From contig JAIBCN010000230.1 in NCBI GenBank assembly GCA_019694155.1, positions 3,536 through 67,535 on the forward strand: a DNA stretch of 64,000 nucleotides, given 5' to 3'. Of the stretch, positions 24,509 through 47,974 are shown in pieces. The stretch is from Vicinamibacteria bacterium. Lineage in GTDB: Bacteria; Acidobacteriota; Vicinamibacteria; Fen-336; JAGNNV01. The notes under the pieces were generated by a model that worked only from the letters and a program-made list of their open reading frames with translations, was not told where the DNA came from and searched no databases. Position 1 is the first letter of the stretch, and each line of letters begins with the position of its first letter. Both the position numbers and the translations under genes were made by a program.

Positions 24509-25735
24509 CTATGCGGGCTGGAGGTAGGGAAATCGACGCGCGACCCGATCGAGCCACGCGACGCGCATTGGCGGCGGTCCGTGATTGATGCCGGGTCTTG
24601 CGCGTGGCGGCTGGATGGCGGTCGCGGCCTTCGGTTGGACTCCGGCCAAACGCTCAGCCGGAGTGGCGCCATCGAGAGAGTAGATCGGTCGCTGGTAGGT
24701 GTAGTAGTTCAGGGCCGCGGCGAGCCGCTCTTCGAAGTCTGACAGCGTGAGCGGCTGCGCGAGGGGAAGGCCCATCAGCCAATCGAGAGTTCTCCAGAAG
24801 CGCTCGATGAGCCCGGTGATCGTGGTCCTGCCCGGGCTGCCGAGGCGTATCCGCGAACCCAGGCGCTTGGCTGCCATTCTGAAGGCGCCCTTGAACTCCG
24901 GTCCTCCGTCTATGGCGACGTACCGCGGCCTTCCCCAGGCTGCGGCTACGCGCTTCAGCAGCCTTGCTGCCGCGTCCGCGGTCGGAGGCGTCGCCGAGGC
25001 GTGGATGCCGAGTGGAGCCTGGGAGTAGGCGTCAAGGACCCCAGTGACCCAGAACTTCCGGAAGCCGAGGAAGCTCTTCACCTCGTGAGAGTCGAGGATG
25101 AAGACATGGCCAACGAACGTCGCCTTGAGGGGCATGCGGCTCGAGGAATCCGGAAGGTCGGGTGAGGCTTCCGTGGGTTCGCTCTTGAGGACGCTCTCCA
25201 CGTAGCTCTTCGAGACCTTCCATCCACCACGCGCGACGTGGGCCGCGATCTGATGAGCGCGTCCGAGGTGGAGGCGTTCCGCCAGGCGCACCAGCGCGCG
25301 GACGACATCGGCGTATCGGCGGATGGGCGGGTCGGGTTGGATGTCGGGGCCGACGGTTTGCCGCGCGGGATCGGCGGCGTCTTCCCACCGTGTGAAGGTG
25401 GTGGGAGTGACGACGAACTGAGCGGCGGCCTCCTCGATCGACCAGCCCATTGTCTGACGCAACTGGAGGGCCTTGAAGCGCGCAGGGCCGGAGTAATGGG
25501 GACGCTTCTTGGGAGCGATCTTCCGAAGCCGCGTCTGGAACGTCTCGACCATCTCGGTGAGGATTCCGTTCCGGGTTTCGAGTTCCTTGATGCGGGCAAG
25601 GGCCATCGTGAGCGCATCATCAGAGAGGCGGAGGCGCCGGAGTTGAGCGTCGAGGGCACAGCCCAGGATGCGAACGGCTCTCAAAGTCGCCTTGGACGCA
25701 ATCTTCTCGGCAGCCTCGTGAATGCGCAGGTTCAT
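24509..25735 (-). CDS. DDE transposase (integrase-core rve domain; IS481/IS3-superfamily-like)
   Basis: Start MNLRIHEAAEKIA. N-terminal HTH with coiled coil, and C-terminal rve/rve_3-like YTYQRPIYSLDGATPAERL. Confidence 0.7.
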   Translation of the reverse strand: MNLRIHEAAEKIASKATLRAVRILGCALDAQLRRLRLSDDALTMALARIKELETRNGILTEMVETFQTRLRKIAPKKRPHYSGPARFKALQLRQTMGWSIEEAAAQFVVTPTTFTRWEDAADPARQTVGPDIQPDPPIRRYADVVRALVRLAERLHLGRAHQIAAHVARGGWKVSKSYVESVLKSEPTEASPDLPDSSSRMPLKATFVGHVFILDSHEVKSFLGFRKFWVTGVLDAYSQAPLGIHASATPPTADAAARLLKRVAAAWGRPRYVAIDGGPEFKGAFRMAAKRLGSRIRLGSPGRTTITGLIERFWRTLDWLMGLPLAQPLTLSDFEERLAAALNYYTYQRPIYSLDGATPAERLAGVQPKAATAIQPPRARPGINHGPPPMRVAWLDRVARRFPYLQPA

Positions 25736-26122
25736 GAGGCGAGCATGGCGGACCGAGCGTGCCTGGCCCTCAGGCGCGGTACCGCGGGGCGCGAGGACCC
25801 CGCGGGCGGAGGCCAAAGCACCGTTCCCGAACGGAGTGGGGCCCAAGGCTCCTCTGAGTCAAAGCGGGGCGGTCAGCCCCGCTCCATTCATTGAAGACGA
25901 CATTGGGCCCCACGTATGTGAGGGAACGCCCGGGTGCTTTGGCCGCAGCATGACCACGCGGCCGCGGTGTTCACGGATGGCCCGCGGTCGGCGCGGTGGC
26001 TTTCGCGGGATTGCTTCGTCGCACTACCGACGGAATGGCTCCTCGCAATGACGGGGGGTGCCTCTCCCCGAAGCGCGGAGGAGGCTGGGCGGTGCGGTTC
26101 GCAATGACGTGGGCGGGGCGTT

Positions 26123-26900
26123 TCACCTCACCGAGGAGCGTCGCTCGCGAAAGTGCTCGCGCCATTCGGCGGAGCGGTAGCGGATGACCTTGAGCAGCGC
26201 GAGATCGACTCGCTTCGCGTCGCCGAGGGCTTCGGCGTCGTAGAGGTCGAAGCCGTCGGGCTGGAAGGAGAGGGTCAGGTACTGGCCGTATTGAACCGCG
26301 TTCTGCATGTCCTCGAAGCTCGGGACGTCGCCGCCGGTCCAGTTGCCGTTCGCGTCGTGGGGGGCGTGGGTGTGCCAGCCTCCCACGTAGCGGCCATGCC
26401 AGTCGGTGCTGGTGATGAGGGCCAGTTGTTCCTCGGGGCCGAGGGAGTAGGTGGGGGCGGCGTTTTGGGCCACGGTGAGAAGGGCGCGCCTCACTTCCTC
26501 TGCGCTGCCGGGTGAGCCGAGGCGGAAGCGCGCCACTGCGACTTTGATGAGGCCGTGGGTGTCGACCTTGGCGACTTCGGCCGCGCGGGTTTCGCACAGC
26601 GAGGCGATGGCTTTGGGGTCTCCGGCGACTTTGACGAGGTCCTGGACCGTCGACCACCGCGGGTCGCGGGCCTCGACTAGGCGCAGCTCCTTGTCGATGG
26701 TCGCTTCGCCTCCGGTTTCCGGGGTGAGCCACTTGGGACCGATCCGCACGCCGCGCTCGATCATGGCCTCGAAGAGCGCGCGGATCCGATCGACGGAGGC
26801 GGGTGAGAGAGCGGCCGCGCGGAGCTGGCGTGGGTGATGGGGTTGTTCTTCGGGGCGGCGAGGCCATGCCACTGGTCGAGGCGCGAGAGGGTTCGCGCCA
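26123..26900 (-). pseudogene. fragment (C-terminal ~260 aa) paralogous to secreted protein gene 29076..30146, fused in frame to a truncated transposase
   Basis: About 88% nt identity to 29121..29880. Homology breaks, with a frameshift, near 26860-26900. Confidence 0.5.
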
Positions 26901-27039
26901 TGGTGGCTGAGACTTTGATCGCACCGGCGGCCTGGCGGGATTGCTTCGTCGGGCGGTCTACCGAACCCTCCTCGCAATGATGGAGGAGTGTCTCGTTGAT
27001 TCCTTGCCCCGACCGACATCGCGACCGATGGCATGGGCG

Positions 27040-27787
27040 GGCTCGCCGAGGCGTGGATGCCGAGTGGAGCCTGCGAGTAGGCGTCGAAAACGCCAGTGAT
27101 GAAGAACTTCCGGAAGCCGAGGAAGTTCTTCACCTCGTGAGAGTCGAGGATGAAGACATGGCCAACGAACCTGGCCTTGAGGGGCATGCGGCTCGATGAA
27201 TCGGGCAGGTCGGGCGAGGCCTCCTCGGGCTCGCTTCTGAGCACGCTCTCGACGTAGCTCTTGGAGATCTTCCAGCCGCCACGCGCGACGTGAGCGGCGA
27301 TCTGGTGGGCGCGTCTCATGCCGAGGCGCTCGGCAAGGCGCACCAAATTGCGAACAACGTCGGCATACCGCCGGATGGGCGGGTCGGTTTGGATGTCGGG
27401 TCCCACGGTTTGTCGAGCGGGGTCGGCGGCGTCCTCCCACCGCGTGAAGGTGGTGGGAGTGACGAGGAATTGAGCGGCGGCTTCCTCGATCGACCAGCCC
27501 ATAGTCTGGCGCAGCTGGAGAGCCCTGAACCGCGCGGGGCCGGAGTAGTGGGGACGCTTCTTGGGAGCGATCTTCCGAAGCCGCGTCTGGAACGTCTCGA
27601 CCATCTCGGTGAGGATTCCGTTCCGGGCTTCGAGTTCCTTGATTCGGGCGACGGCCTGCGTGAGCGCGTCATCGGAGATGCGGAGGCGACGGAGTTGTGA
27701 ATCGAGGACCCGGGCGAGGATCCGAACGGCTCCGAGTGTCGCTCTTGTGGCGATGGCCTCGGCCGCATCGTGCAGGCGCAGGTTCAT
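27040..27787 (-). pseudogene. truncated transposase paralog (N-terminal ~250 aa only; catalytic rve core missing)
   Basis: Start MNLRLHDAAEAIA. About 80-85% nt identity to 24985..25735 and ends abruptly at about 27040. Part of chimeric ORF 26123..27931. Confidence 0.55.
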
Positions 27788-27878
27788 GAGGAGAGCACCC
27801 CCTTTTGCAGGTTCCCGAAGGGGATCGGCTCGCAAGGAAGACCGAGCGCATTTCGCCAAGGACGGAATGGCTCCGCCC

Positions 27879-29024
27879 TCAGAGATCCTCCGCGATCCTC
27901 GACGCCGCAAGCGCCGTGATGTCCTTCGCAAGCGGGAAGGTCTCTACTCCCGCGTGGATGATGTACGCATGGCGCAGCCCGAGCACGGAGATTGCCGATC
28001 GGAGGGACTTCGTGACTTGCGGCGCGCTCGTGCGCTTCGCCTCGAACCCGATGCGCCTCGATCCTCTGATCCAGAGCATGTCGAGCTCGGCGCCGCCATG
28101 AGTGGCCCAGAAGAACGTCTCCGAGGAGTCGGCCTCGACCCGGGCCGCCGCCTGCTGAAGCACGAATCCTTCCCACGAGGCGCCGAGGAGAGGGTGGCGC
28201 TCGAGGTCGCGGAGCGTCGGGATTCCCAGGAGGGCGTGAAGAAGGCCGGAGTCGCGGATGAGAACCTTCGGCGCTTTGACCTGGCGACGGTCGATGTTGA
28301 CGTGCCAGGGCTTGAGGGTGCGCACCACGAGCGCCTTTTCCAGGATCTCGAGGTAATGGCCCACCGTTCCCTCACTGACCGCGAGCGAGCGGGCCAGCTC
28401 GGCCGCGTTCCAGGTGCGCGCGTGGTAGTGGGCGAGCATGCTCCAGAAACGCGAGAGGCGCGGCGCTTCGATGCGGATGCCGAGCTGGGGGATGTCCCGC
28501 TCGATGAATGTGCGGATGAACGCCCGTCGCCATTCCAGGCTTCGCGCTTCGGAAGGCGCCGCGTAGCTTCGCGGAAAGCCGCCGCGGAGCCAGAGACGAT
28601 TGAGGTGCGGCGCGCCCACGTCGCGGAGACGCAGCCCTTCGAGGGTGTGGTAGGCGATGCGTCCGGCGAGGCTCTCCGACGACTGCCGGAGCAGCTCTGG
28701 CGATGCGCTCCCCAGGATGAGAAAGCGGGCGGGCAGGGGGTGGCGGTCGGCGAGGACGCGGAGGGTTTCGAAAAGGCCCGGGCGGCGCTGGATCTCGTCG
28801 AGGATCACAAGGCCGCGAAGGGGCTTGAGGGCAAGGCCCGGGTCCGAGAGCCGGGCGAGGTCGTCCGGATCCTCGAGGTCGAAGCTCTCCACCGAGCGGC
28901 TGGCCGCCGCGATCTGGCGGGCCAGGGTTGTCTTGCCCGATTGGCGCGGTCCCAGGAGAGCCACGACGGGGAAGTGCCCGAGAAGTCGGCGAACGGCAGA
29001 GATCTCGTCAAGCCGCGGAATCAC
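27879..29024 (-). CDS. AAA+ ATPase (DUF4143 family)
   Basis: Walker A LLGPRQSGKTTLARQ, Walker B ILDEIQR, and the C-terminal DUF4143-like region. Confidence 0.7.
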   Translation of the reverse strand: MIPRLDEISAVRRLLGHFPVVALLGPRQSGKTTLARQIAAASRSVESFDLEDPDDLARLSDPGLALKPLRGLVILDEIQRRPGLFETLRVLADRHPLPARFLILGSASPELLRQSSESLAGRIAYHTLEGLRLRDVGAPHLNRLWLRGGFPRSYAAPSEARSLEWRRAFIRTFIERDIPQLGIRIEAPRLSRFWSMLAHYHARTWNAAELARSLAVSEGTVGHYLEILEKALVVRTLKPWHVNIDRRQVKAPKVLIRDSGLLHALLGIPTLRDLERHPLLGASWEGFVLQQAAARVEADSSETFFWATHGGAELDMLWIRGSRRIGFEAKRTSAPQVTKSLRSAISVLGLRHAYIIHAGVETFPLAKDITALAASRIAEDL

Positions 29025-29075: not shown

Positions 29076-30146
29076 TCAGGATCCCCCTTTCGTCGAGGGG
29101 TGCAGGCTTCGAAAGTGCTCACGCCATTCGGCCGAGCGGTATCGGATGACCTTCAGCAGGGATAGGTCGACTCGCTTCGCGTCGCCGAGCGCTTCGGCGT
29201 CGTACAGATCGAACCCGTCGGGCTGAAAGGCGAGCGTCAGGTATTGCCCGTACTGAATCGCGTTCTGCATATCCTCGAAGCTCGGGACGTCGCCGGCGAT
29301 CCAGCCGCCGTTCGCGTGATGGGGGGCATGGGTGTGCCAGCCGCCCACGTACCGCCCCTGCCAGTCGGTGCTGGTGACCAGGGTCAATTGTTCCTCGGGG
29401 CCGAGGGAGTAGGTGGGGGCGGCGTTTTGGGCCACGGTCAAAAGGGCGCGGCGGACTTCTTCCGCGCTGCCGGGTGAGCCGAGGCGGAAACGCGCCACTG
29501 CGACTTTCAGCAGACCGTGGGTGTCGATCACCGCGACTTGAGCGGCGCGCCTTTCGCAAAGCCCTGCGATGGCCCTGGCGTCTCCCGCTGCTTTGACGAG
29601 ATCCTGGATCGTCGACCACCGCGGGTCGCGGGCCTCGACGAGGCGCAGCTCGGTGTCCAGCGTTGCTTCACCGCCGGTTTCCGGCGTGAGCCACTTCGGG
29701 CCGATCCGCACGCCGCGCTCGATCATGGCTTCGAAGATCGCGCGAATGCGAGCGATGGAGGCGGGCGAGAGGGCGCCCCCGCGGAGCTGCGCGTGAGTGA
29801 TGGGGTTGTCCTTCGGGGCTTCGAGGCGGCGCCACTGGTCAAGGCGCGAGAGCGTGCGCGCCATGGTGGCTGAGAGTGCGAGCGTTCCCGAGGCCGCGTC
29901 TTGAAGAAGCAGATCGTGCGGCCGGAGGATGAACGGTTTCGGATGCGAGCGGATCCAGGGAATGAGCGCCCGGGCTTCCGCTCCCAGGCCAAGGTGATCG
30001 ATGCCGATGATCTGCGGCAGATCTTCGGCGATCACCGCGTCCTTCAGGGGCACGCTGGCCGGACGGGACTGCGGCGGGCCTGCGGCGATCGAAAAGGCGG
30101 CGAGAGCCGGGATCAGGAGAAACGATCGGGCGGCCCGGTGTGGCAC
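29076..30146 (-). CDS. secreted hypothetical protein with possible JAMM/MPN (RadC-like) motif
   Basis: Signal peptide. GGWHTHAPHHANGGWIAGDVPSFEDMQ resembles the RadC/JAB motif HNHPSGDPTPSQADIQ (HxH...GD.PS..D.Q) with an insertion. Confidence 0.45.
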   Translation of the reverse strand: MPHRAARSFLLIPALAAFSIAAGPPQSRPASVPLKDAVIAEDLPQIIGIDHLGLGAEARALIPWIRSHPKPFILRPHDLLLQDAASGTLALSATMARTLSRLDQWRRLEAPKDNPITHAQLRGGALSPASIARIRAIFEAMIERGVRIGPKWLTPETGGEATLDTELRLVEARDPRWSTIQDLVKAAGDARAIAGLCERRAAQVAVIDTHGLLKVAVARFRLGSPGSAEEVRRALLTVAQNAAPTYSLGPEEQLTLVTSTDWQGRYVGGWHTHAPHHANGGWIAGDVPSFEDMQNAIQYGQYLTLAFQPDGFDLYDAEALGDAKRVDLSLLKVIRYRSAEWREHFRSLHPSTKGGS

Positions 30147-30330
30147 GCCTCATCCTAGAAGACGGAGGCTGGCCACGCCGGATTGCCCCGAGGCGGGGCA
30201 GGCTTGTCCTTGTCCGGGCGGGCGAGAGAGTGCGGGCTGGAGGGCCCAAGTTGTTCGGAAGGAGACGCTTAGAGCTCCCGGATCCGCCTTCGACTACGGC
30301 GGCACAGGCCTTGAACCACAGCCGGCCGTC

Positions 30331-31089
30331 ATGCCCCTCCGAAAGCCCGCGCTCGATCCCGAGACCCTTGCCGAGCTGAGCCTTCTTGGCGAACGGTACG
30401 GTGTCGATTTCACTCGCCCGATCGTGAACCTCTTTCGCCGCGATGCTCCGGCCCGCCTCGAGCAACTTCACAAGGCCGTCGTTTCGGACGATTTCGAAGG
30501 CACCGAGCGGGCCGCCCACAGTCTGCGCGGCAGCGCCGCCCAGGTGGGGGCGATGCGGCTCGCGTCCCTTGGCCGCTACGTGGAGACGCGGCCGACCGGG
30601 CACACCACGCAGAGCCTGCGACGCTGGATTCCCGTTCTCGAGAACGAGCTGAATCGGGTGCTCGCCGCGCTGCCGGGCGACGCCCCGGAAGTTCCTTCCA
30701 CGCCGGCCTCGCGGCGGACTCGCGTTCTGGTGGCCGACGATGAACCTCACATCTCGCTCTTTCTCTCGAGCGTCCTTGGCGCCGAAGGGTACGACACGCG
30801 CGAGGCCGCGACCGAAGCGCGGATCATGGATGAAGTCGCTTCGTTCCATCCGGACCTCCTGCTCCTCGACTGGTTCCTGACCGACACCACGGCCCCCGAC
30901 ATCATGGGGCGGCTCGACGGCACGGTGAACCGGCCCGCCGTGGTCGTGCTCTCGTCTCGCGCGCAGGACTCTTCCCTCCTTCGACAGCTCGACAAGCACG
31001 GCCTCACCGCCTGCCTGCCCAAACCCATCGGCCCGCGCGCCCTCGTCCAGGCGTTGCGCGACGCCGGCTTTGGAGCCCGAACATGCTGA
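30331..31089 (+). CDS. Hpt domain + response-regulator receiver protein
   Basis: Hpt-like HSLRGSAAQVGA followed by a receiver domain (VLVADDEPH..LLLLDW..LPKP). Confidence 0.6.
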   Translation: MPLRKPALDPETLAELSLLGERYGVDFTRPIVNLFRRDAPARLEQLHKAVVSDDFEGTERAAHSLRGSAAQVGAMRLASLGRYVETRPTGHTTQSLRRWIPVLENELNRVLAALPGDAPEVPSTPASRRTRVLVADDEPHISLFLSSVLGAEGYDTREAATEARIMDEVASFHPDLLLLDWFLTDTTAPDIMGRLDGTVNRPAVVVLSSRAQDSSLLRQLDKHGLTACLPKPIGPRALVQALRDAGFGARTC

Positions 31090-32354
31090 TGCACGAAACC
31101 TCGCCGGATGCCGTGGTCTCCGGCCTCGTGGGCGAACTCGCCCGGGCCTGGGACGGACTCGATGCTCTCTCCAAGATCATCGCCGCGCGGGGCGGCACGG
31201 ATGGCGGGGGACCGGTGCTGCACCGGTTGCTGGAAACCGCCTGCATCGCGCGTCCCGAGGTTCGGTCCGCGGTCTGGAAGACCGAAGGAGAGCAGCTGAT
31301 CCCGGTCGCGCAGTTCGGCTGCCTCACCATCGACCCCACGGCCCTCGCTCTGGCCGAGGCGTGCTCGCGGAGCGGCCGCACCCGCATCCTCAACGCTGAC
31401 GGTGTCTCCTCCTCCGACTCCACCGGACGCGACCCCCGGGTCATCGCCACCCCCGGCCGCTCTCCATCGGGCCGCCGGGCGGTTCTCGCTTTCTGGAGTC
31501 CCGCGGACGCCGCGCCGTTCGATTCGCACACCGTGCGGATCGCGGAGGCGCTGGCCCTTCAGGTGGCTCTCATCTTCGAGGAAGAGGAATGGACGAGCCG
31601 CCTCCTCAATCAGGAGCGCGCCGATGCCGACCTCGGGGCGGCCCGCCGCATCCAGGCCTCGCTGCTCGAATCGCCGCGGGTGGGAGAGAGCGGCCCCGTC
31701 TCGTGGGCGAGCTTCTCGCGGCCGTCGCGCGTGGTGGGCGGCGACTTTCACGATGTGAATGTCCGGCCCGGCGGCGGCGTCGACGTGGTGCTCGGCGACG
31801 TGATGGGGAAGGGGCTTCCCGCGGCCCTTCTTGGCGCGGCCTGCCTGAACCATGTCTTTCGCGCCGCCGCGGCGTCGGACCCTTCGGCAAGGCTCTGCCA
31901 GATCCTCAGCCGCACCAACGAAACACTCACGCCGGAGCTCGTCCGCCTGGAGACCTTCGCCAGCATGATCCTCGTCCGCATCGACGGCGACCCGCTGCGG
32001 CTGACCGTGGCGGATGCCGGCCACGCGAGCCTCGTGATCCGCGGCGCCGACGGCGGCGTCTTCAAGCCCCGCGGGCGCGAGACGCTCCTCGGCGTGGAGC
32101 GCGAGCCCTTCGGCGAGACCACGGTGGCGCTGTCCCCGGGCGACCTGATCGTCGTCTTCACCGACGGCCTCACGGACGTGGGGCGAAAGAGCCGCCATAC
32201 CTTCGACGTGGCCGGGTGGCTTGCGGACTCGCGCGCCCTGACGCCTGCCGACGTGGTGTCCGAGCTGTCCGCGATGATCGAGAAATTCTGTCCGGCGGGC
32301 GATGCGCCCGAGGACGACATCACTTTCGTGGCCATCGGGATCGGTGACCGCTGA
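31083..32354 (+). CDS. GAF-domain PP2C-type Ser phosphatase (RsbU/SpoIIE family)
   Basis: C-terminal PP2C motifs GGDFHDV, VLGDVMGKG and FTDGLTD, with an N-terminal GAF-like region. Confidence 0.75.
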   Translation: MLMHETSPDAVVSGLVGELARAWDGLDALSKIIAARGGTDGGGPVLHRLLETACIARPEVRSAVWKTEGEQLIPVAQFGCLTIDPTALALAEACSRSGRTRILNADGVSSSDSTGRDPRVIATPGRSPSGRRAVLAFWSPADAAPFDSHTVRIAEALALQVALIFEEEEWTSRLLNQERADADLGAARRIQASLLESPRVGESGPVSWASFSRPSRVVGGDFHDVNVRPGGGVDVVLGDVMGKGLPAALLGAACLNHVFRAAAASDPSARLCQILSRTNETLTPELVRLETFASMILVRIDGDPLRLTVADAGHASLVIRGADGGVFKPRGRETLLGVEREPFGETTVALSPGDLIVVFTDGLTDVGRKSRHTFDVAGWLADSRALTPADVVSELSAMIEKFCPAGDAPEDDITFVAIGIGDR

Positions 32355-32806
32355 TGGAACCCGTCCCCGTCGCTCAGGTCGACGTCCCCGCCGCGGAGGC
32401 GAGCCTCCCTTTCTTGAGGCGCTGGGCCGAGACGGTGTGGAACGAATCCTGTCCCCTCGCACCTCCGCAAGGCCTCCACACCTTCGTTCTCGCCGTGCAC
32501 GAGGCCTTCCGCAACGTGATCGAGCACGGTTGCGAGGAGGGCCGAGGTCCCATCCGCATCGAGGTGACGCGCACCCGCGGCGCGCTCACCGTGCGCCTCA
32601 CTTATGACGGCATCCCGTTCGACGGGGTCGCCGCGCCCGCGAGCTTCGACGGGTCCCGGGACCGCGGCTTCGGCATGTACCTCATGACCCGCTCCTTGAG
32701 CCGGGTGACGCACACGACGCTGCGCGAAGGCCGGCAGCAAATGGAACTGACCAAGTCGATCCCGCGCCCGAAGCGCGCCGACAACATCTCTGGAGATAAG
32801 AAATGA
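32354..32806 (+). CDS. anti-sigma regulatory factor / RsbW-like Ser-Thr kinase (HATPase_c)
   Basis: 150 aa. EAFRNVIEHG.. (N-box) and DRGFGMYLM (G-box). One-nucleotide start/stop overlap with the PP2C gene. Confidence 0.65.
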   Translation: MEPVPVAQVDVPAAEASLPFLRRWAETVWNESCPLAPPQGLHTFVLAVHEAFRNVIEHGCEEGRGPIRIEVTRTRGALTVRLTYDGIPFDGVAAPASFDGSRDRGFGMYLMTRSLSRVTHTTLREGRQQMELTKSIPRPKRADNISGDKK

Positions 32807-33129
32807 TCAAGAACGCAGGCGTATCGAACGGGTGGACCGTCCTTTCGGTCAACTCGGAAACCGTGGACAGCAGCAACGTCTTCCAGTTCAAGGCCGGCAT
32901 GCAGCCCTTCCGCACCGCGGGAGCGAAGCTCATCCTGGACCTCGGAGCCGTGGAGTTCATGGACAGCTCCGCTCTCGGCGCTCTCCTCACCGCCACCCGC
33001 GCCGTCGAGGCGTCGGGCGGGGCCTTGAGGCTCGTGAGCCTCACCCCGCCGGTGCGGACGCTCTTCGAGCTCGTGCGGCTCCATCGCGTCTTCGACATCA
33101 TGAACGACCTGGCCGAGGCCGCCGCGTGA
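32803..33129 (+). CDS. STAS-domain anti-sigma-factor antagonist (RsbV/SpoIIAA-like)
   Basis: 108 aa containing LDLGAVEFMDSSALGALL, where the phosphorylatable Ser lies. ATGA coupling to the preceding gene. Confidence 0.7.
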   Translation: MIKNAGVSNGWTVLSVNSETVDSSNVFQFKAGMQPFRTAGAKLILDLGAVEFMDSSALGALLTATRAVEASGGALRLVSLTPPVRTLFELVRLHRVFDIMNDLAEAAA

Positions 33130-34334
33130 ACTCTCCGGAACTCCGGCCGGGCCCGCCCTCTTCGCGCGGCAAGAGCCTGACCCTGGCGGTCTTCATCGAT
33201 GCCCTGGGCGCCGAGGTCGCGGAGCGCCACGGTTTCCTCGAAGGACACCTCGAGACCCGCGCCCGCGTCGACACCGTCCTCGGCTACAGCTGCACCTGCG
33301 TCCCGACCATCCTTACCGGCCGCCTGCCCGAAGAGCATGGGCATTTCTCGTTCTTCCGGTTCGATCCCGAAAGGTCGCCCTTCCGCGGCCTCGAGTGGCT
33401 GCGCTTCATGCCGAAGGCCGTGACCTCGCGCGCCCGCGTGCGGAACGCGATCTCCAAGGTGGTGGGGTCGTACCTCGGGTTCAACGGCTACTTCAACCTC
33501 TACAACGTCCCCTTCGAGCGCCTGCCCTACCTCGACTACACCGAGCGCAAGGACCTCTACGAGCCGGGCGGCATCATCGAAGGCCAGGAGACGCTCTTCG
33601 ACCACATGCGCTCGGAGAGGATCTCCTTCGCCCTCGCCGACTGGCGGGCCAATGAGGCGTCGAACGTGGAGGCGCTCGGCCGGGCCATCCGTTCGAGGGA
33701 GGTGGACTTCGCGTATCTCTACCTCGCCCGGCTCGACGGCATCATGCACGCGGCCGGTCCCGAGGACGACGCGGCTTCCGCCCACATCCGCGGTTACGAG
33801 CAGACCATCCTCAGGATGGTCGATCTCGCCCACAAGAACTACGACCAGGTCCGCCTTCACGTCTTCTCGGATCACGGCATGACCCCGATCCGCGAGACGG
33901 TGGACATAAGGTCGCGCATCGACGCCCTCGGCCTCACTTTCGGACGCGATTACGGCGCGGTGTACGACTCGACCATGGCGCGCTTCTGGTACCTGCGCGA
34001 AGGCGTGCAGGGCCGCATCGAAGACGCCCTGCGCCATTGTGCACAGGGGCGCTGGTTCGAAGCGCAGCAGCAGAAGCTCGCGGGATGTCACTTCGAGGAC
34101 GCGCGCTACGGCGAGGGCATGTTCCTGCTGAATCCCGGAGTGCTGCTGTGCCCGAGCGACATGGGCGAACGGCCGATCGCGGGGATGCACGGCTATCACC
34201 CCGCCGATGCCGACTCCACCGCCTTTTTCGGCTCCACGGAGACGATCGCTCCGCCCCGGCGCCTCGACGGCCTTCATGACCTCCTTCTGGGCTCGGCCCG
34301 CGAGAACAGCGCTCTTCGATCGGAGGCCGCGTGA
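33126..34334 (+). CDS. alkaline-phosphatase-superfamily protein (type I phosphodiesterase / nucleotide pyrophosphatase-like)
   Basis: GTG start overlapping the STAS stop (GTGA). The fold has GYSCTCVPTILTG near the N-terminus and FSDHGM near the C-terminus. Confidence 0.55.
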   Translation: MNSPELRPGPPSSRGKSLTLAVFIDALGAEVAERHGFLEGHLETRARVDTVLGYSCTCVPTILTGRLPEEHGHFSFFRFDPERSPFRGLEWLRFMPKAVTSRARVRNAISKVVGSYLGFNGYFNLYNVPFERLPYLDYTERKDLYEPGGIIEGQETLFDHMRSERISFALADWRANEASNVEALGRAIRSREVDFAYLYLARLDGIMHAAGPEDDAASAHIRGYEQTILRMVDLAHKNYDQVRLHVFSDHGMTPIRETVDIRSRIDALGLTFGRDYGAVYDSTMARFWYLREGVQGRIEDALRHCAQGRWFEAQQQKLAGCHFEDARYGEGMFLLNPGVLLCPSDMGERPIAGMHGYHPADADSTAFFGSTETIAPPRRLDGLHDLLLGSARENSALRSEAA

Positions 34335-35899
34335 CCGCCACCGCAGCCGGGGAACAAGGCGTGGTGGGCCGTGTCGCCTGGGGAACCTTCGCGAGCCTGG
34401 GGCGGATCGGCGTCACTTTCGCCGTCTGGTTCCTGCTCACCCCCTTCATGATCCACTCGCTCGGCGCCGAGGGGTACGGCCTGTGGTCGCTTCTCTTCTC
34501 GATGGTGGGTTTCCTCTCCCTGCTCGACCTCGGCACGGGAGCGGGTGTGGTCCGCTGCGTCGCCGAGACGCGCGGCCACGGGCGGCTCCACGAGCGCGAC
34601 GAGGCGCTCTCCACCTATCTTGCGTCGTCCCTGGTGCTCTCCCTGATCGGCGTGCTGGGCATCGGAGCCATGGATCTTTGGGCCCTGCCCGCCCTGGGCA
34701 TTCCCACGGGGGCGCTTCCCATCGCGCGCACGGCTCTGTGGCTCGTCGGCCTGCGCAGTTTCATCCTGGCGGTCCCGCTCGGCTTCGTCCGGGGCGTCCT
34801 CTTCGGAGAGAACCGCCTGGTGGCGCTCAATGTCGCGCAGGCGGTGTCCACGGTGATTGGCGGCCTGCTGACCGCGGGCGTTCTGGCCCTGGGGGCGGGT
34901 GTGCGCGGCGTGGCGTGGGCCGGGCTCTTGGGCATGCTCATCGAGCATCTCTTCTATCTGCGGCTCGCCCTGCCCTACCTGCGCGGCATGCGGCTTTCCT
35001 GGCGGCGCGTGACGCTTCGCGCTCTGCGCCGAGCCTCGTCCCTGGGTTTGGCGCAGCTGATGATTGCGGCTTCCGGCCTCGTCCTGCTTCGCACGGATCC
35101 TCTGATCGTCCAGGCCTTCTTCGGCATGGCCGCGGTATCGATGTACGCAGTGGCCATGAAGGTGGCGGAGAACACGTTCCTCATCATCAAGCAGTTCGTG
35201 AACGCCCTCTCGCCGCTGATCGCGGAGTGGCACGCCGCCGGGAAGACGACCGAGTTACGGGAACTCATGGTGCGGGCCACGAGGCTCGCCGGGATTCCCG
35301 CGGCCCTGATCGGTGGCGCGGCCATCGGCGGCGGCTCTTCCCTCCTGCGCCTGTGGCTTGGTCCCGAGTTCGAGGCGGCGGCGCTGCCCATGCGGATCCT
35401 GGTGCTGTCCATGGTGCTGACCGTGCCGCAGATGGTGGTGTTCGGGCTGCTCACGTATTCCGATCGGCACCACCTGCCCGCGCGGGCCTCGGTGGTGGCG
35501 GCTCTCGTCAACCTCGCCCTCTCCCTTCTCCTGGTTCGCCCCTTCGGTCTATCGGGGGTGGCGCTTGGAACACTGGGGGCGACCGCCATCGTCGATGTGG
35601 TCTACGTTCTTCGCTCAGGGACGTCGGCGTTTGGCCTGTCGTTCCCCGAACTCGCGCGTCGGGCCCTTCTGCCCACGTGGACTCCTCTCGTGCTGCTGAG
35701 CGCGTTCCTCGCGGTCTGGTTCCAGGCGGCTCCGCCGCGAAACCTCGTTGACTTCGCTTTGAAGACGGGCATCGGGATGTCTCTCGGCGCTCTCCTGCTG
35801 GGCCGCCTGGCCCTCGAACCCGAAGAGCGGGCGCTGATCCTGGGGAAGATGCAGCGGCTCGCCGCCTCGTTCCCGAGCCCCTCGTGGAGGACCGCGTGA
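34331..35899 (+). CDS. polysaccharide flippase (Wzx / MOP superfamily)
   Basis: 522 aa with 12-14 predicted TM helices. GTG start coupled to the preceding stop. Confidence 0.7.
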   Translation: MTATAAGEQGVVGRVAWGTFASLGRIGVTFAVWFLLTPFMIHSLGAEGYGLWSLLFSMVGFLSLLDLGTGAGVVRCVAETRGHGRLHERDEALSTYLASSLVLSLIGVLGIGAMDLWALPALGIPTGALPIARTALWLVGLRSFILAVPLGFVRGVLFGENRLVALNVAQAVSTVIGGLLTAGVLALGAGVRGVAWAGLLGMLIEHLFYLRLALPYLRGMRLSWRRVTLRALRRASSLGLAQLMIAASGLVLLRTDPLIVQAFFGMAAVSMYAVAMKVAENTFLIIKQFVNALSPLIAEWHAAGKTTELRELMVRATRLAGIPAALIGGAAIGGGSSLLRLWLGPEFEAAALPMRILVLSMVLTVPQMVVFGLLTYSDRHHLPARASVVAALVNLALSLLLVRPFGLSGVALGTLGATAIVDVVYVLRSGTSAFGLSFPELARRALLPTWTPLVLLSAFLAVWFQAAPPRNLVDFALKTGIGMSLGALLLGRLALEPEERALILGKMQRLAASFPSPSWRTA

Positions 35900-37047
35900 A
35901 GCCGCTTCTCTTTATCGTTCCCGCTCTTCCTCAGCCGCCCACCACGGGCGGGGAGATCTTCAACCAGCGCCTCGCCCACGGGCTCGCCGCGGAATGGGAT
36001 CTCACAGTGGCGACCTTCGCGGACCTGGGCGGCAGCGCGCAGATGACGGCCGCGGAATTTGAAAGGCGTCTCGTCGCGTTCGTGAAGGGCGGCGTGGAGC
36101 CGGGTCCGGTTCTCCTCGACACGTACCTGTACCGTCAGTTCGACGGCGCCCTCGACCGGCTGCGTGCGCTCGGTTTCGGACCCTTCATCGGCTTCGGCCA
36201 GGCCTGGTATCCCGGGCGCTACCGCTCGTTCCTTTCGCGCGCGCGCGTTCAGGCCCGCCTCATGCGCCTCCTGCGAAGGCTCGATCATCACGTGGTGGTG
36301 AGTGAGTCGCTCGAGTCGGATTACGCGCGGCTCGGCATCCCGCCCGCGATGGTCGATGTCGTCCTGCCGGGTTTCGATCTCGCCTCGTCTCTTCCTTCGG
36401 CCCCCTCCGAACGATCGGGCCCCTTGCGCGTGAGGATCGCGGGGACCTACATGCCGGCCAAGGGCCAGCACCTGCTGATCGAAGCGATCGAGCGCCTGGT
36501 CGCGGCGAATCCCGATCTTCCGGCCGTGATGAGGATCGAGGCTATCGGTCCGAAGGGCCAGGCTCCCGAATATGTTCGAGACCTGCAGGCGCGCGCCGAC
36601 CGGCTGCCTCCGGGCCTCGTGACATTGTCCGGCGCCACCACTCAGCCGGAACTGTGGAAGGCCTTCAGCGACACCGATGTCTTCTGCTTCCCGGCCGCCG
36701 GGGAAGGCCTTGGAATGGTCGTGGTCGAGGCGATGCTGTGCGGCGCCTTTCCCCTGGTGAGCCCGGATGGGCCGCTCGTCGAGGTGGTGGGCAAGGCGGG
36801 ACGTGTGGTTCCGCGCGACGCCACGTCGATCGCGGCGGCCCTGTCCGAACTGCTCGCGGACCCCGCGCTCCCGTCCCGGCGAAGGGAAGCGATGGAGAGG
36901 GCCCGCGCGATAGCGCCCGCATGGTCACAATCGGTCGAGCGCGTGGGACACTCGGTCAGCCGCGCTCTCGATCGCGTCATGGCGGGGCAGGATGGCCCCA
37001 GGGTGGGGCTGCTTGGCCGGCTGATACCGGGCTGGCTTCCAAGATAA
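35884..37047 (+). CDS. glycosyltransferase family 4
   Basis: C-terminal GT4 motif FPAAGEGLGMVVVEAMLCGAFPLVS. An alternative GTG start at 35896 would give a GTGA overlap with the flippase stop. Confidence 0.7.
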   Translation: MEDRVKPLLFIVPALPQPPTTGGEIFNQRLAHGLAAEWDLTVATFADLGGSAQMTAAEFERRLVAFVKGGVEPGPVLLDTYLYRQFDGALDRLRALGFGPFIGFGQAWYPGRYRSFLSRARVQARLMRLLRRLDHHVVVSESLESDYARLGIPPAMVDVVLPGFDLASSLPSAPSERSGPLRVRIAGTYMPAKGQHLLIEAIERLVAANPDLPAVMRIEAIGPKGQAPEYVRDLQARADRLPPGLVTLSGATTQPELWKAFSDTDVFCFPAAGEGLGMVVVEAMLCGAFPLVSPDGPLVEVVGKAGRVVPRDATSIAAALSELLADPALPSRRREAMERARAIAPAWSQSVERVGHSVSRALDRVMAGQDGPRVGLLGRLIPGWLPR

Positions 37048-37113
37048 ACCCATAAGAAGCAGTGTGTTGCCGGCCGGGGCAGCGCGGCACGCGGGTTGCC
37101 CGTCTAGCGGCCT

Positions 37114-39567
37114 GTGCAAGACCAGCCTTCCGCCCCTCCGCCCGCCGAAGAGGGCCTCCCGTTCCACCCCGCGACCGTCCTGCGCTCTCTTTGGCGTCGT
37201 CGGACCGTGGTCGTGACCTTCGCCGCCATAGGCGCGGTGATCGGCCTTCTCGTCGCGCTGAGCGTCGGCGAGCGTAAGTTCGTTTCAGAGACGGTGCTGA
37301 TGTTCCGGCCCGCGGCCGCCGGACCCGACGACCCCGGCGCCTCCGTGGAGACCATCCTGAATCTCGTCAAGGTGCCGGCGAACCTGGAGCAGGTGCGCGA
37401 GAAGCTGAACGAGAGCACACCCATCCCCGCCCTTGCTTCATCGTATGAAGTGGCCGCCCTCAAGAACACCGACCTCGTGGCCATCCGCGCGACGGGCGAT
37501 ACAGCGAAGCAGGCCGCCGACCGCGCCAATGCCCTCCGCGAAGCGTTCCTGCTCAACCAGGCAAAGCTCGCGGCCGAGAAGGGCGAGAGGCAGTCCGGCG
37601 TGGTGGCGAGGCAGCTCGAGGAAGTGAAGGCGGCGCTTTCGCTCGCGGATCAAAAGCGGATCGAGATCGGAATTCAGACGGGCATCGTGGATCTCGAGAA
37701 GCAGACCGGCACCTACCTTCAGCAGCAGGCGTCCATGGAGATCTTCTACGGACAGGCGCTCGCCGATCGCACCGCGGTGGACGAGCAGAACCAGACCCTG
37801 GAAAAGACCGCCGCCGAGTTGCAGAAGAAGATCGACAAGGAGCAGAAGATGGCGGGGGCTCAGGAAGACCTGACCTCGCTCAACATCCGCAGCGGCCGGC
37901 TGCGCTCGTCGATCGAGGAAGACCGGAAGGACCGCGCGGCGAAGGCTGAACTCGCGCAGAAGGAAGCCGAGTTCAAGCGGGCGAGCGATCTGTTCGAGCA
38001 GGGCCTCCTGTCCAAGTCCCTCCTCGACAAGGCGCGGGCCGAGTACGAGGCGCAGAAGGCGCGGGCCACCGACACCGATCAGATCCAGCAGTGGAAGGCG
38101 GAGCTCGCACGCCTCGACTCGGGCGTCATTCCCACCAAGCCCACCGACTCGGCCAGCACGGGAATCCTGCGCGAGGTCATGTCGAAGCGCCTCAACCTCG
38201 GTCTCGAGAAGACCGCGGTCGAGGAGCGGGTCAAAGCACTCGATGCCTCGCGCGCGCAGATCAAGGCGCGGGTGGAGGGCCTGCCGGAACTGAAGCGGCA
38301 ACTGGCCAACGTGGAGCGCGAGGTGGAGAGTCTCGAGCAGCGGCGCCGCACCCTCGAGGATCTTCTGGCCAAGGCGCGCGCGGCCGGAGGCGCCACCTCC
38401 GCCGATTTCACCCTCGTCTCGCCCGCGATCCCGCCTCTCTTCCCCAAGTCCTCCAATCGGTCTCTCGTCCTCGTCGCGATCTTCGGCCTTTTCTTCGGCG
38501 CCGGTCTTGTCCTGGTGGTGGGTGTGGAGCTTCTCGACACCACGCTGCGCTCGGGCCCCGAGGTCCTGGTGAAAGCCGGGGCAAGGCTCCTCGCTTCGAT
38601 CCCGAGGCTTCCCGATGACATCGCCTCGCTGCCCACGAGCGAAGACTCGCCCGCCTTCGCCTTCTTCCGCCGCCTCGCCTACCAGATTCGCCGCGACAGG
38701 GACGACGGGCCTCTGCGCATCCTCGTGACCACGCCCCATCGCGGCGAGGGCGCGACCTTCGTCGCCTCGCATCTGGCCGCCGCCTTCGGGCGTCTGGACG
38801 AACGCGTGGTCTACGTGGACTCGCGCCTCGCGGGCGTTAGCCCGGTCGATCTGCGATCTCTGGCACTCACGCGCGACCCGATGCACGGCGGTTTCGTCCT
38901 GCCCTCCGAGATCGAGGAGAAGATCCTGTCCTCGTCCCGCGAGGCCGTGGCGCGCGCCCGGGCGGTTCTCTCCCGCGGGAAGTCCAGGCGAAGGCCGTGG
39001 CCGATCCATGTGAAGCGTCCCCTCGTTCACGTCCGCCGCTTCGTGCGGGCCGGGGCGAATCGCGCGAGCGCCGGATCCCACGCGCTCTATACGCTGATCG
39101 CGTCGATCCTGTGGCCGGCGGCGGTGGCCGAGACCCCTTCCCTCGCCTTCTCGACGCCCGGCGACGAAGGGCTTGGCTCCTACCTTTCATATCAGCGCGA
39201 GTCTTCCCGCGAGGTGGCGCACCCCACACCACTCATGGGTCTTGCCTGCCTCCCCGCGGACAACGTGCCGGCGCCGCTCCGCGAGAGCATCGCCTGGAGG
39301 CGCATGCGGGACCTGGTCGCGGAGCTCTCGGGTCGATACCCCGTGGTGGTGTTCGATGCGTCCGGGCTGCTCGACGATCCTGATCCCGAGGTGCTGGCCG
39401 ATCAGGTCGATCTCGTCCTCGTGGTGGCCCGGGCCGAGAAGACGCCGGTGCGCGATCTCAAGCGCACACTGAATCGTCTCTCGTCCGCGAAGGGGCGGAC
39501 GGCGGGCGTCATCCTGAACGGCGTGGACCGGGCGTTCGCGGATCTTCTGACCGAGGCGGAGGCGTGA
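37114..39567 (+). CDS. Wzc/GumC-like polysaccharide co-polymerase with degenerate BY-kinase domain
   Basis: N-terminal TM followed by a long coiled-coil periplasmic region, a second TM (LVLVAIFGLFFGAGLVLVV), and a C-terminal P-loop-like domain whose Walker A reads TPHRGEGAT (Lys replaced). No C-terminal Tyr cluster. Confidence 0.7.
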   Translation: MQDQPSAPPPAEEGLPFHPATVLRSLWRRRTVVVTFAAIGAVIGLLVALSVGERKFVSETVLMFRPAAAGPDDPGASVETILNLVKVPANLEQVREKLNESTPIPALASSYEVAALKNTDLVAIRATGDTAKQAADRANALREAFLLNQAKLAAEKGERQSGVVARQLEEVKAALSLADQKRIEIGIQTGIVDLEKQTGTYLQQQASMEIFYGQALADRTAVDEQNQTLEKTAAELQKKIDKEQKMAGAQEDLTSLNIRSGRLRSSIEEDRKDRAAKAELAQKEAEFKRASDLFEQGLLSKSLLDKARAEYEAQKARATDTDQIQQWKAELARLDSGVIPTKPTDSASTGILREVMSKRLNLGLEKTAVEERVKALDASRAQIKARVEGLPELKRQLANVEREVESLEQRRRTLEDLLAKARAAGGATSADFTLVSPAIPPLFPKSSNRSLVLVAIFGLFFGAGLVLVVGVELLDTTLRSGPEVLVKAGARLLASIPRLPDDIASLPTSEDSPAFAFFRRLAYQIRRDRDDGPLRILVTTPHRGEGATFVASHLAAAFGRLDERVVYVDSRLAGVSPVDLRSLALTRDPMHGGFVLPSEIEEKILSSSREAVARARAVLSRGKSRRRPWPIHVKRPLVHVRRFVRAGANRASAGSHALYTLIASILWPAAVAETPSLAFSTPGDEGLGSYLSYQRESSREVAHPTPLMGLACLPADNVPAPLRESIAWRRMRDLVAELSGRYPVVVFDASGLLDDPDPEVLADQVDLVLVVARAEKTPVRDLKRTLNRLSSAKGRTAGVILNGVDRAFADLLTEAEA

Positions 39568-40736
39568 AGCTGCTCGTGATTTCGAATCTCTACCCGCCCG
39601 ACGTGCAGGGCGGCTACGAAATCCTGTGCGCGCAGGTGGTGGAGGGCCTCCGGGCCATCGGCCACAGCGTCGTGGTTCTCACTTCCGGATCTGAAGACGG
39701 GAACGCGGATCCCGCGGTGTGGCGCCGGCTCGAACTCACCGGGCGATTTCCCGAGCCGGTGCGCGCCAGCCGCTGGGACTCCCTCGCCATTCACCGTCGG
39801 AACGCCGCGATCACGAGAAGGGCGATCAGGGACCTTCGTCCCGACCGGATCTTCATCTGGAGCCAGCTTCGCCTGACCCTTGGCTGCGCGGAGGCGGCCG
39901 AGGAGTCGGGTCTTCCCGTGAGCTACACCTTCAACGACGAGCATCCCACGGGGTTCTTGCCGCGGACCGCGAACGGCACCGTGCGGTCGCATGTGGGGGC
40001 GATGATCGACGCCGTTTTCCCGCGCCCGACCGCACGGTCGCGCCGCTTCGCGCACACAACCTGCATCAGCGCGACTCTCAAGGAAGCTCTCGTGGCCAAA
40101 GGGATGCAGATTCCGGGCTGCCGCGTGATCTATCAGGGGATCCCGATCGAGCGCTTCCCGCCTCTCCTCGATCGCGTCCGCGGTCCGGAGTTCCGGATCC
40201 TCTACGCGGGGCAGCTCCACGAGTACAAGGGAGTGCACACGCTGCTCGAAGCCGCGGCCCTGCTGTCGCGCCGGGGCAGCCGCCGTTTCGAAGTGTCGAT
40301 CGCGGGCGACGGGCCGTCCGCCTACAAGGCCCGCCTTTCCGAGCTGGCCCGCGTGGTCGGAGCGCCCGTGCGGTTCCTCGGCCGGGTGCCGCACGACAAG
40401 ATCCCCGCCCTCTACCAGACGCACGACGTCTTCGTCTTTCCATCGATCTGGCGCGAGCCTTTCGGCCTGACCCATCTCGAGGCCATGGCCTCGGGCACGC
40501 CCGTGGTGAGCACCACCGAGGGAGGCCCGGGCGAGTTTCTCGAGGACGAGAAGAACGCGCTCACCTTCCCGAAGGCCGACCCTGCGCGGCTCGCCGATGC
40601 CCTCAGACGGCTCGCCAATGACGAGGACCTGGCCCGCCGCATCGCCCGAAACGCCCGGGCCATGGTCGAAACCCGTTTCACCCTCGATCGCTACGTGCGC
40701 GACCTCGAGGCCTTTCTTGGAGAAGCGCCCCAGTGA
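39564..40736 (+). CDS. glycosyltransferase family 4
   Basis: GT4 motif FVFPSIWREPFGLTHLEAMASGTPVV. GTGA start/stop coupling. Confidence 0.75.
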   Translation: MKLLVISNLYPPDVQGGYEILCAQVVEGLRAIGHSVVVLTSGSEDGNADPAVWRRLELTGRFPEPVRASRWDSLAIHRRNAAITRRAIRDLRPDRIFIWSQLRLTLGCAEAAEESGLPVSYTFNDEHPTGFLPRTANGTVRSHVGAMIDAVFPRPTARSRRFAHTTCISATLKEALVAKGMQIPGCRVIYQGIPIERFPPLLDRVRGPEFRILYAGQLHEYKGVHTLLEAAALLSRRGSRRFEVSIAGDGPSAYKARLSELARVVGAPVRFLGRVPHDKIPALYQTHDVFVFPSIWREPFGLTHLEAMASGTPVVSTTEGGPGEFLEDEKNALTFPKADPARLADALRRLANDEDLARRIARNARAMVETRFTLDRYVRDLEAFLGEAPQ

Positions 40737-42022: not shown

Positions 42023-42058
42023 GACCCTCATCAATAAAGACTTCTGGGGTCGGGCGGG

Positions 42059-43953: not shown

Positions 43954-43955
43954 TC

Positions 43956-45209: not shown

Positions 45210-45235
45210 GACTCCCGGCAACGAAAGGCATCTCC

Positions 45236-47961: not shown

Positions 47962-47974
47962 AACGTCCGTATTC

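Follow-up and report, generated by a model that had tools for sequence, protein, structure and literature searches.

In partner switches of the RsbU/RsbW/RsbV type, the gene of a cognate sigma factor usually lies beside that of the kinase. What does such a switch control when this neighbour is missing and its genes are coupled to exopolysaccharide (EPS) genes? The question is raised by a 64,000-nt stretch of a metagenome-assembled genome (MAG) of a Vicinamibacteria bacterium (Acidobacteriota) from soil, hereinafter designated the window, to which all positions refer. Four successive genes of the window (30331–33129) encode an Hpt-REC protein, a GAF-PP2C phosphatase, an RsbW-type kinase and a STAS protein, no cognate sigma factor is encoded beside the kinase, and the four genes lead directly into an EPS cassette. 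Judging from the sequence, it is rather probable that the STAS protein's phosphorylation state gates EPS synthesis post-translationally, in a Syp-like/All4160-like manner; the switch most likely turns polymer synthesis on or off directly.

The switch proteins and their gene coupling

Because the G+C content of the window is about 68%, open reading frames (ORFs) were called via third-position GC bias and then checked against Pfam and NCBIfam. The first gene of the module (30331–31089, + strand) encodes a 252-aa Hpt-REC protein (Pfam Hpt, E 3.6e-13; Response_reg, E 1.8e-13), the second (31083–32354, +) a 423-aa GAF-PP2C serine phosphatase of the SpoIIE family (Pfam SpoIIE, E 4e-32), the third (32354–32806, +) a 150-aa serine kinase of the RsbW/SpoIIAB type (Pfam HATPase_c_2, E 6.6e-14), and the fourth (32803–33129, +) a 108-aa single-domain STAS protein (Pfam STAS, E 7e-16). 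This is the order given in the original prediction, borne out by Pfam and, for the GAF domain, by homology and fold search.

The four switch proteins look catalytically competent, with the catalytic and acceptor residues intact. In the Hpt-REC protein, the Hpt His within AAHSLRGSAAQ is kept in orthologues, as are DDEPH, the Asp of LLLDWF, the Ser and the Lys of LPKP in the receiver, and the start M-x-x-RKP(S/A)L is conserved across orthologues. The phosphatase motifs GGDFHD, GDVMGKG, TDGL and DDIT, which include the PP2C metal-binding Asp motifs, are invariant. The kinase has an invariant N box (E50/N54), a G1 box of the DxGxxFD type (G86..F89) and a G2 box (G105xG107); its profile matches RsbW (6m36_A) at E 1e-14, and SpoIIAB was also matched. 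The STAS profile matches SpoIIAA (1th8_B) at E 7e-19. Specifically, D54-S55 is invariant and aligned with the DSSG motif, the predicted phospho-acceptor is Ser55 in FMDSSALG, and D54-S55 corresponds to S58, which we take to be the phospho-Ser of SpoIIAA. The C-terminal signature of the STAS protein is PVRTLFELVRLHRVFEI.N.

An AlphaFold (AF2) model of the phosphatase has a pLDDT of 82, and its best Foldseek matches in the PDB are the PP2C domains of SiaA, RsbX, SpoIIE, RssB and Rv1364c, with E ~1e-12 for SiaA, RsbX and SpoIIE. An exact-sequence look-up of this protein gave no match. Pfam sees no GAF domain in its 225-residue N-terminal domain, even at E up to 0.1. The N-terminus aligns with the Pfam-recognised GAF domain of a distant Blastocatellia homologue (E 3e-15), and when residues 1–199 were modelled alone (AlphaFold, pLDDT 78), all 50 best PDB matches listed were GAF domains (TM 0.5–0.7), including those of PtsP, DosS/DosT, PDE6 and phytochromes. 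The GAF label is thus supported by homology to a GAF-bearing relative and by GAF-only fold matches.

The switch genes are translationally coupled (overlaps of 1–7 nt) to the genes that follow, which encode an alkaline-phosphatase-superfamily enzyme (33126–34334, +; Pfam Phosphodiest PF01663, E 1.6e-16; hereinafter the PF01663 enzyme), a Wzx-like flippase (34331–35899, +; Pfam MatE/Polysacc_synt_3, NCBIfam WZX_like) and a GT4 glycosyltransferase (35884–37047, +; Pfam). Read from the sequence, the junctions from 30331 onward are −7 (or −1), −1, −4, −4, −4, −16 and +66 nt, and the later ones, up to the left-handed beta-helix (LbH) gene described below, are −4, −4, +36, −4, +2 and +26 nt. The kinase start overlaps the PP2C stop (TGATG), and the overlap of the STAS and PF01663 genes is GTGA. 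The claim that the genes from 30331 to 46723 overlap or are separated by under 70 nt was therefore correct. Because the start codon of the PF01663 gene overlaps the STAS stop codon, a terminator would not fit after the STAS gene. A scan for intrinsic terminators found none at the STAS/PF01663 junction and none convincing in the cluster; the 12 weak sites that it gave, compared with 7.7 ± 3.4 expected, neither support nor refute an operon.

Recurrence of the switch in EPS clusters

Orthologous contigs at 54–97% identity share the gene order of the window. The order Hpt-REC/PP2C/kinase/STAS/PF01663/Wzx is kept in contigs L001, L002, L089 and L090; synteny is complete through the GT4 genes in L001 (54% identity), and L002 (68% identity) keeps Hpt-REC to Wzx as a six-gene block and then diverges. 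By sequence comparison, the same order recurring at such identities is far beyond chance. Full-length phosphatase orthologues are rare and all come from metagenomes, and a scan of the genome collection gave no full-length orthologue, only a deleted remnant. A deletion variant of the locus is present in two Acidobacteriota MAGs (L003/L005/L006) in the same flanking context (e.g., L003 9971–13939). It is without the whole switch and most EPS genes, and its phosphatase is a degenerate 280-aa remnant with the catalytic motifs GGLADKG and TDEL. It keeps a sigma-54-like motif, a 163-aa Bac_transf fragment, a homologue of a 474-aa protein and a sigma-54 regulator, whose counterparts in the window are described below.

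Two contigs have further peculiarities. L089 is 93–97% identical to the window except at the contig edge (2–160), where unrelated sequence stands in place of the N-terminal (Hpt) end of the Hpt-REC gene, perhaps because of a recombination break or a chimeric assembly. Near the six-gene block of L002 lies an exosortase (EpsH) gene (9849–11255, −), a possible sign of a connection with PEP-CTERM/exosortase systems; in the window itself, an exosortase was not detected.

In more distant relatives, a dedicated STAS subfamily and (GAF-)PP2C-kinase fusions are found inside the same EPS cassette in several groups, namely Acidobacteriota, Planctomycetota, Chlamydiota, Betaproteobacteria and Deltaproteobacteria (five phyla). 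A Blastocatellia locus (L007) starts with a hybrid kinase carrying REC-REC-Hpt, followed by REC, GAF-PP2C-kinase and STAS, after which come an acetyltransferase, a GT4, Wza, a Wzc-like protein and GT4s. The order is Wzc-like, REC, PP2C-kinase, STAS, Bac_transf and LbH in an Isosphaeraceae locus (L008), and PP2C-kinase, STAS, Bac_transf, Bac_transf/WecG and LbH in an acidobacterial one (L026). The Ferrovum locus (L016) has a MASE1-CHASE-PAS-PP2C-kinase gene divergent from Bac_transf, Bac_transf/WecG, LbH and STAS, and module arrangements are similar in L014, L042 and L043. Finally, a Parachlamydiaceae MAG (L033, 9632–11638) encodes one 669-aa REC-PP2C-kinase-STAS protein with Bac_transf directly after it, as is similarly the case in L043. 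The association of the switch with EPS genes is conserved and has been re-created in different gene orders across phyla. The L033 protein is in itself a complete 'partner switch' in a single polypeptide, from environmental chlamydiae.

The same linkage was observed in a STAS-anchored metagenome scan, which gave 80 loci at 39–97% identity. A kinase or phosphatase is encoded directly upstream of STAS in 32 of the 47 loci with room upstream. Among the 30 loci of at least 5 kb, cassette homologues are present in 21, the Bac_transf/WecG/LbH trio in 14, a nucleotidyl transferase in 8 and PF01663 in 3. The wiring, which had been called unusual for an EPS locus, therefore recurs widely in metagenomes, and it has experimental precedents in SypE/SypA (PMC4517449, PMC3610818) and HenR/All4160 (PMC13555669).

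That the regulatory genes are mere neighbours of the EPS genes, with no functional link to them, is hardly credible in view of these data. Only the general reservation that adjacent genes need not be functionally linked speaks for it, while stop/start overlaps run through the switch-EPS junction, and the linkage is kept over the whole range of orthologue identities and arose with other gene orders in the distant groups.

The distant loci also bear on whether the switch is a canonical one, in which the RsbW-like protein would be an anti-sigma factor for a sigma-70/ECF factor encoded elsewhere that transcribes EPS or other genes. The core three proteins (phosphatase, kinase, STAS antagonist) are true homologues of RsbU/RsbW/RsbV and SpoIIE/SpoIIAB/SpoIIAA, and the conserved Ser is shared. 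The view is limited to 64 kb of the genome, and a sigma factor may be encoded outside it. In the Bacillus switches, however, sigma-B or sigma-F is sequestered by the kinase and its gene lies in the kinase's own operon, whereas the window has no such gene: Pfam finds no sigma-70-family domain in any plausible ORF of the 64-kb window, and the genes called on the orthologous contigs L001 and L002 include none of the sigma-70 family. Moreover, homologous kinases are covalently fused to the phosphatase in L007, L008, L016, L026 and L117, as identified by Pfam, and in L014, as judged by ORF length and tblastn matches only; in L033 the kinase is fused to STAS as well. Such fusions are hard to square with sigma sequestration, and across phyla the module keeps the EPS cassette as its partner. 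A free anti-sigma role is therefore unlikely, which points to STAS as the output, and we consider the canonical explanation quite improbable. The kinase fusions and the EPS linkage across phyla thus back the proposal of the original prediction that the output is probably control of polysaccharide synthesis rather than sigma sequestration. The L033 fusion, together with the stand-alone REC gene that precedes the phosphatase gene in L007 and L008, also supports coupling of the receiver to the PP2C domain.

Candidate targets in the EPS cassette

If the STAS protein is the output, its target is to be sought among the EPS proteins. The leading candidate was hidden in a misread ORF (43335–45209), which really comprises two genes. 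The first, in another frame (43255–43953, +), encodes a small but complete Bac_transf priming sugar-phosphate transferase of 232 aa, as indicated by frame and GC3 analysis. The second (43956–45209, +) encodes the degenerate C-terminal part of a Bac_transf fused to a WecG/TagA glycosyltransferase, and is followed by the gene of an LbH (hexapeptide) protein (45236–46723, +), whose start we corrected to 45236; both assignments come from domain and frame analysis. The trio of Bac_transf, partial Bac_transf-WecG fusion and LbH is conserved (window 43255–46723, L026 11433–15026, L087 8063–11512). The same Bac_transf-like/WecG fusion is present in L026 and L087, LbH homologues are present in L008 and L026, and the conservation of the trio hints at a hetero-oligomeric priming complex. 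The LbH homologues also carry a weak NTP_transferase segment in L008 and a C-terminal partial Bac_transf-like segment in L008 and L026.

The 232-aa transferase is 100% identical to an NCBI 'sugar transferase [Vicinamibacteria bacterium]' (P0241) and 56–68% identical to transferases encoded beside STAS genes in other phyla. In L008, L026, L033, L042 and L043, Bac_transf comes directly after the STAS gene, adjacent and unfused; the two genes lie in one operon in L016 and are divergent in L014. Because the priming transferase recurs most often as conserved neighbour, and because a cyanobacterial STAS domain is fused to a member of the same family, we tentatively propose it as the best single candidate for the specific STAS target.

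Several observations weigh against this proposal. The gene after STAS varies, being PF01663 in this clade, a nucleotidyl transferase in ~8 loci and a GT4 in others, and the neighbourhood therefore favours the whole cassette over the priming enzyme. The STAS and Bac_transf genes are 10 kb apart in the window, and no STAS fusion is present among the 120 closest Bac_transf homologues. Bac_transf is strictly next to STAS in only 3 of the 55 metagenome loci with room downstream, for which reason we keep the target assignment as an inference. The gating model as a whole draws on sequence and gene neighbourhood.

The same switch could act on another target, with dephospho-STAS or the kinase acting on the PF01663 enzyme, Wzx, the Wzc-like autokinase or the nucleotidyl transferase supplying the activated sugar. 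The PF01663 and Wzx genes lie directly after STAS and are the sole EPS genes kept beside the switch in L002. PF01663 also follows STAS in L091, L094, L095 and L132, a nucleotidyl transferase is found in the ~8 loci mentioned above, and in L007 and L008 the module lies beside a Wzc-like gene. Yet the PF01663 family, which is ~50% identical across many phyla, also occurs in EPS clusters without a switch: PF01663 and Wzx are together in a switch-free cluster of Sumerlaeia, and PF01663 is found in switch-free clusters of Myxococcota and of Uabimicrobium, with Wzx further along in the latter. No fusion in the examined data joins STAS to the PF01663, Wzx, Wzc-like or nucleotidyl transferase families, and the only experimentally supported Rosetta-stone fusion is that of STAS and Bac_transf (PMC13555669). 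We consider another target rather unlikely.

The occurrence of PF01663 and Wzx in switch-free EPS clusters indicates that they are cassette genes and not switch genes. The idea that they are parts of the switch, which came from the six-gene block of L002, was rejected on these grounds. Likewise, of the earlier view that the module leads into a phosphodiesterase-family gene and Wzx, the coupling holds, but both genes belong to the EPS cassette. The PF01663 enzyme of the window is 100% identical to an NCBI 'alkaline phosphatase family protein [Vicinamibacteria bacterium]' (P0121).

The rest of the cassette extends past 46723, the end of the gene run in the original prediction. Upstream of the priming transferase gene, a Wzc-like chain-length determinant/tyrosine autokinase of 817 aa is encoded at 37114–39567 (+); its sub-cut-off, partial NCBIfam matches are the XrtA-associated Tyr autokinase, Wzc and EpsG, and a Pfam search gave no match. 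Three GT4 glycosyltransferases follow (39564–40736, 40733–42022 and 42059–43258, all +; Pfam). Downstream of the trio, Pfam identifies a Wzy-type polymerase (Wzy_C; 46627–48156, −), an acyltransferase_3 (47975–49174, −), a GT4 (49297–50499, +), a GT2 (52351–53478, +) and a sugar-nucleotidyl transferase (53273–54664, +). The LbH and Wzy ORFs are convergent, and their 3' ends overlap by 97 nt (46627–46723). The cassette thus contains the Bac_transf, Wzx, Wzy_C and Wzc-like proteins (the last from sub-cut-off partial matches) of a Wzx/Wzy pathway. No Poly_export/SLBB match for Wza/OPX outer-membrane export was found in the window, and Wza is present in the relative L007. The missing Wza/OPX may be encoded elsewhere or may be the conserved 474-aa protein at 50298–51722 (+), which has no Pfam or NCBIfam match. 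Homologues of this protein are found in the cassettes of L003 (51% identity; the deletion variant) and of the Uabimicrobium cluster L085 (30%). Rfam and tRNA scans of the window gave no matches.

Upstream of the locus, the window contains a ~22-kb insertion (7078–29075) with a lower G+C content of 0.60–0.65, flanked by a methyltransferase gene (6469–7077, −) and the gene of a conserved 356-aa protein (29076–30146, −), which are adjacent in L001 and L003. It encodes a 2126-aa RCC1/CHB_HEX-repeat protein (7402–13782), a 1372-aa RHS-repeat protein (13801–17919), an orphan RHS fragment (22129–23868), two rve/HTH_23 transposase-like proteins (24509–25846 and 26123–27931, −) and an AAA_14/DUF4143 ATPase (27879–29024, −). 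The insertion looks like a mobile RHS toxin island.

The candidate sigma-54 layer and known analogues

The statement that the locus has no sigma factor stands for the sigma-70 family, but it overlooked two regulators at the end of the locus. A sigma-54-dependent response regulator of REC-AAA+-HTH_8 architecture (54742–56103, +; Pfam Sigma54_activat, E 1e-63) has NtrC, AtoC and the PEP-CTERM-box regulator as its nearest NCBIfam models, all below cut-off, and is 83% identical in the deletion variant L003. It is followed by a cytoplasmic PAS-GAF-PAS histidine kinase (56484–58856, −; Pfam), a candidate phosphodonor.

Three candidate sigma-54 promoters were identified, all on the + strand. The first, CGGCACAGGCCTTGAA, lies at 30300–30315, 16 nt before the Hpt-REC start codon; the second, CGGCACGCGGGTTGCC, lies at 37085–37100 in the 66-nt gap, 14 nt before the Wzc-like gene; and the third (49268–49283), a 16-mer identical to that at 30300, lies 14 nt before the GT4 gene at 49297. 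The core CGGCAC-N5-TTG has exactly three matches in the 64 kb, with both strands scanned, compared with 0.57 expected, and these are the three + strand sites located 14–16 nt upstream of the starts at 30331, 37114 and 49297. Only this stricter core is informative, because a loose sigma-54 pattern (2 mismatches) is not enriched (13 found versus 18 expected). GGCAC-N5-TTGA also precedes the Hpt-REC gene in L001, L002 and L090, as it does the remnant phosphatase gene in L003/4/6, and L001 retains GGCAC-N5-TTGC (9726) ahead of its Wzc-like gene, while the sequence around these motifs has diverged in each relative. At the level of motifs, the conserved element is a phylogenetic footprint of a candidate −24/−12 promoter. 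The distance of 14–16 nt from the start codon in all three cases would give near-leaderless mRNAs, an odd but consistent geometry.

Some features count against promoter function. At −12, two of the three motifs carry A (TTGA) where C is nearly invariant, the implied leaders are only 3–5 nt in the window (~12 nt in L001), and rpoN is not in the 64-kb window. A sigma-70 promoter scan found none. With conserved sigma-54-type motifs in the sole sizeable gap (37085–37100), before 30331 and before the third unit, the single transcript assumed in the original prediction is doubtful; the cluster probably comprises at least three sigma-54-dependent units, with read-through possible.

The presence of these regulators raises the possibility of feedback on transcription, in which the STAS protein or the switch kinase would act on one of the two, the activator or the histidine kinase, and the output would be sigma-54-dependent expression of the cluster and not enzyme activity. 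Both regulators lie at the end of the locus, and the candidate sigma-54 promoters precede its units. In addition, a soil metagenome locus (L117, 138–5391) has consecutive genes for a GAF-PP2C-kinase, STAS, a REC-Hpt protein, with domains in the reverse order of Hpt-REC in the window, and a sigma-54 regulator 49% identical to that of the window. In this gene row the relay protein, the switch and the activator are linked as a single regulatory set, but one relay that feeds both layers would account for the co-location equally well. The neighbours of the module in most related loci are EPS enzymes, not the activator, and the studied analogue SypE/SypA acts below syp transcription (PMC3610818). 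Feedback on transcription is thus very unlikely.

Post-translational gating of EPS synthesis, the explanation that we favour, would make the locus a Wzx/Wzy-type EPS cluster under two layers of control by one phosphorelay. In the transcriptional layer, as the motifs suggest, the sigma-54 activator would drive at least three units from GGCAC-N5-TTG(A/C) at 30300, 37085 and 49268. In the second layer, the RsbW-type kinase would phosphorylate Ser55 of the STAS protein and thereby inactivate it, and the GAF-PP2C phosphatase would reverse this when stimulated by the phosphorylated Hpt-REC receiver and/or a GAF ligand. Dephospho-STAS would then bind and activate a component of EPS assembly instead of freeing a sigma factor, possibly the priming transferase, alone or with its two paralogue-containing partners (43956–46723); the system would thus be the unfused counterpart of cyanobacterial STAS-Bac_transf proteins. 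Through the Hpt domain, the receiver of the sigma-54 regulator would be fed by this relay too, resulting in coherent transcriptional and post-translational control.

The closest functional analogue, judged by the published description of its proteins, is the syp locus of V. fischeri. Under the control of SypE, its STAS protein SypA is active in the unphosphorylated form and exerts its effect below the level of syp transcription (PMC4517449, PMC3610818); the target of SypA was still described as unknown in 2024 (PMC11112999). As in the window, a STAS protein, its Ser kinase and a PP2C phosphatase are encoded within a polysaccharide locus, and no sigma factor is the known target. In syp, a receiver domain sets the balance of kinase and phosphatase, and an Hpt-containing relay (SypF) and a sigma-54-dependent response regulator (SypG) control the locus (PMC4517449, PMC3610818, PMC11112999); the counterparts in the window would have the same roles. 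The component lists match, but the architectures differ. SypE is one kinase-REC-PP2C polypeptide, whereas the window encodes separate Hpt-REC, GAF-PP2C and kinase proteins, with a GAF sensor added; the Hpt domain is fused to a receiver and not to a hybrid kinase, and the host is an acidobacterium with a different EPS cassette.

The closest mechanistic analogue, by comparison of components, is HenR/Alr3423/All4160 of Anabaena. There, a receiver-controlled SpoIIE-type phosphatase and an RsbW-type kinase set the STAS phosphorylation that governs a priming enzyme (PMC13555669). All4160, a STAS-Bac_transf fusion, loses its activity on phosphorylation and depends on the REC-SpoIIE phosphatase HenR; its phospho-control has genetic proof, and the authors judged the fused system lineage-specific to cyanobacteria (PMC13555669). 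Synechocystis XssP is likewise a priming transferase (PMC8205485). The window resembles All4160/XssP in having Bac_transf in the same cluster, directly beside STAS in relatives. It differs in that its STAS protein is free and encoded 10 kb from the transferase, its phosphatase carries GAF and the REC domain is on a separate protein; the cyanobacterial form is fused, in contrast to the unfused arrangement in at least five other phyla.

An Hpt-fed switch is also found in P. aeruginosa, where HptB feeds HsbR, a single REC-PP2C-kinase protein that sets the phosphorylation of the STAS protein HsbA, with a biofilm-related output. The partners of HsbA are FlgM and the diguanylate cyclase HsbD, and the system is not known to lie in an EPS cluster; Pfam finds no FlgM or GGDEF domain in the window. 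The switch described here is thus a recurrent, conserved design with precedents, and its new features are the split architecture, the GAF sensor, the Hpt-REC fusion and the acidobacterial host.

Post-transcriptional control of EPS synthesis is poorly understood. Uncultured bacteria from soil and peat, belonging to several phyla, carry the same component set, unfused, on one conserved EPS cassette, and the comparison suggests that EPS priming is under phospho-STAS control outside cyanobacteria too. It is conceivable, although less than probable, that a cassette of a receiver (with or without Hpt), GAF-PP2C, an RsbW-type kinase and a PVRTLFELVRLHRVFEI STAS protein gates EPS synthesis at lipid-carrier priming. 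This cassette, often with a sigma-54 activator, is found in Acidobacteriota, Planctomycetota, Chlamydiota and Proteobacteria. On this reading, it would represent the STAS-Bac_transf fusion of cyanobacteria in free-standing form. The comparison offers a concrete, testable interaction, namely that of the STAS protein with the 232-aa priming transferase, and a compact switch usable for engineering EPS output. For this genome, the locus can be explained as an EPS cluster regulated in two layers, and its gene map is corrected. If the proposal is true, phosphorylation control of the priming transferase would be a general bacterial strategy rather than a cyanobacterial one, and the priming transferase would be nominated as the long-sought target of SypA-type STAS proteins.

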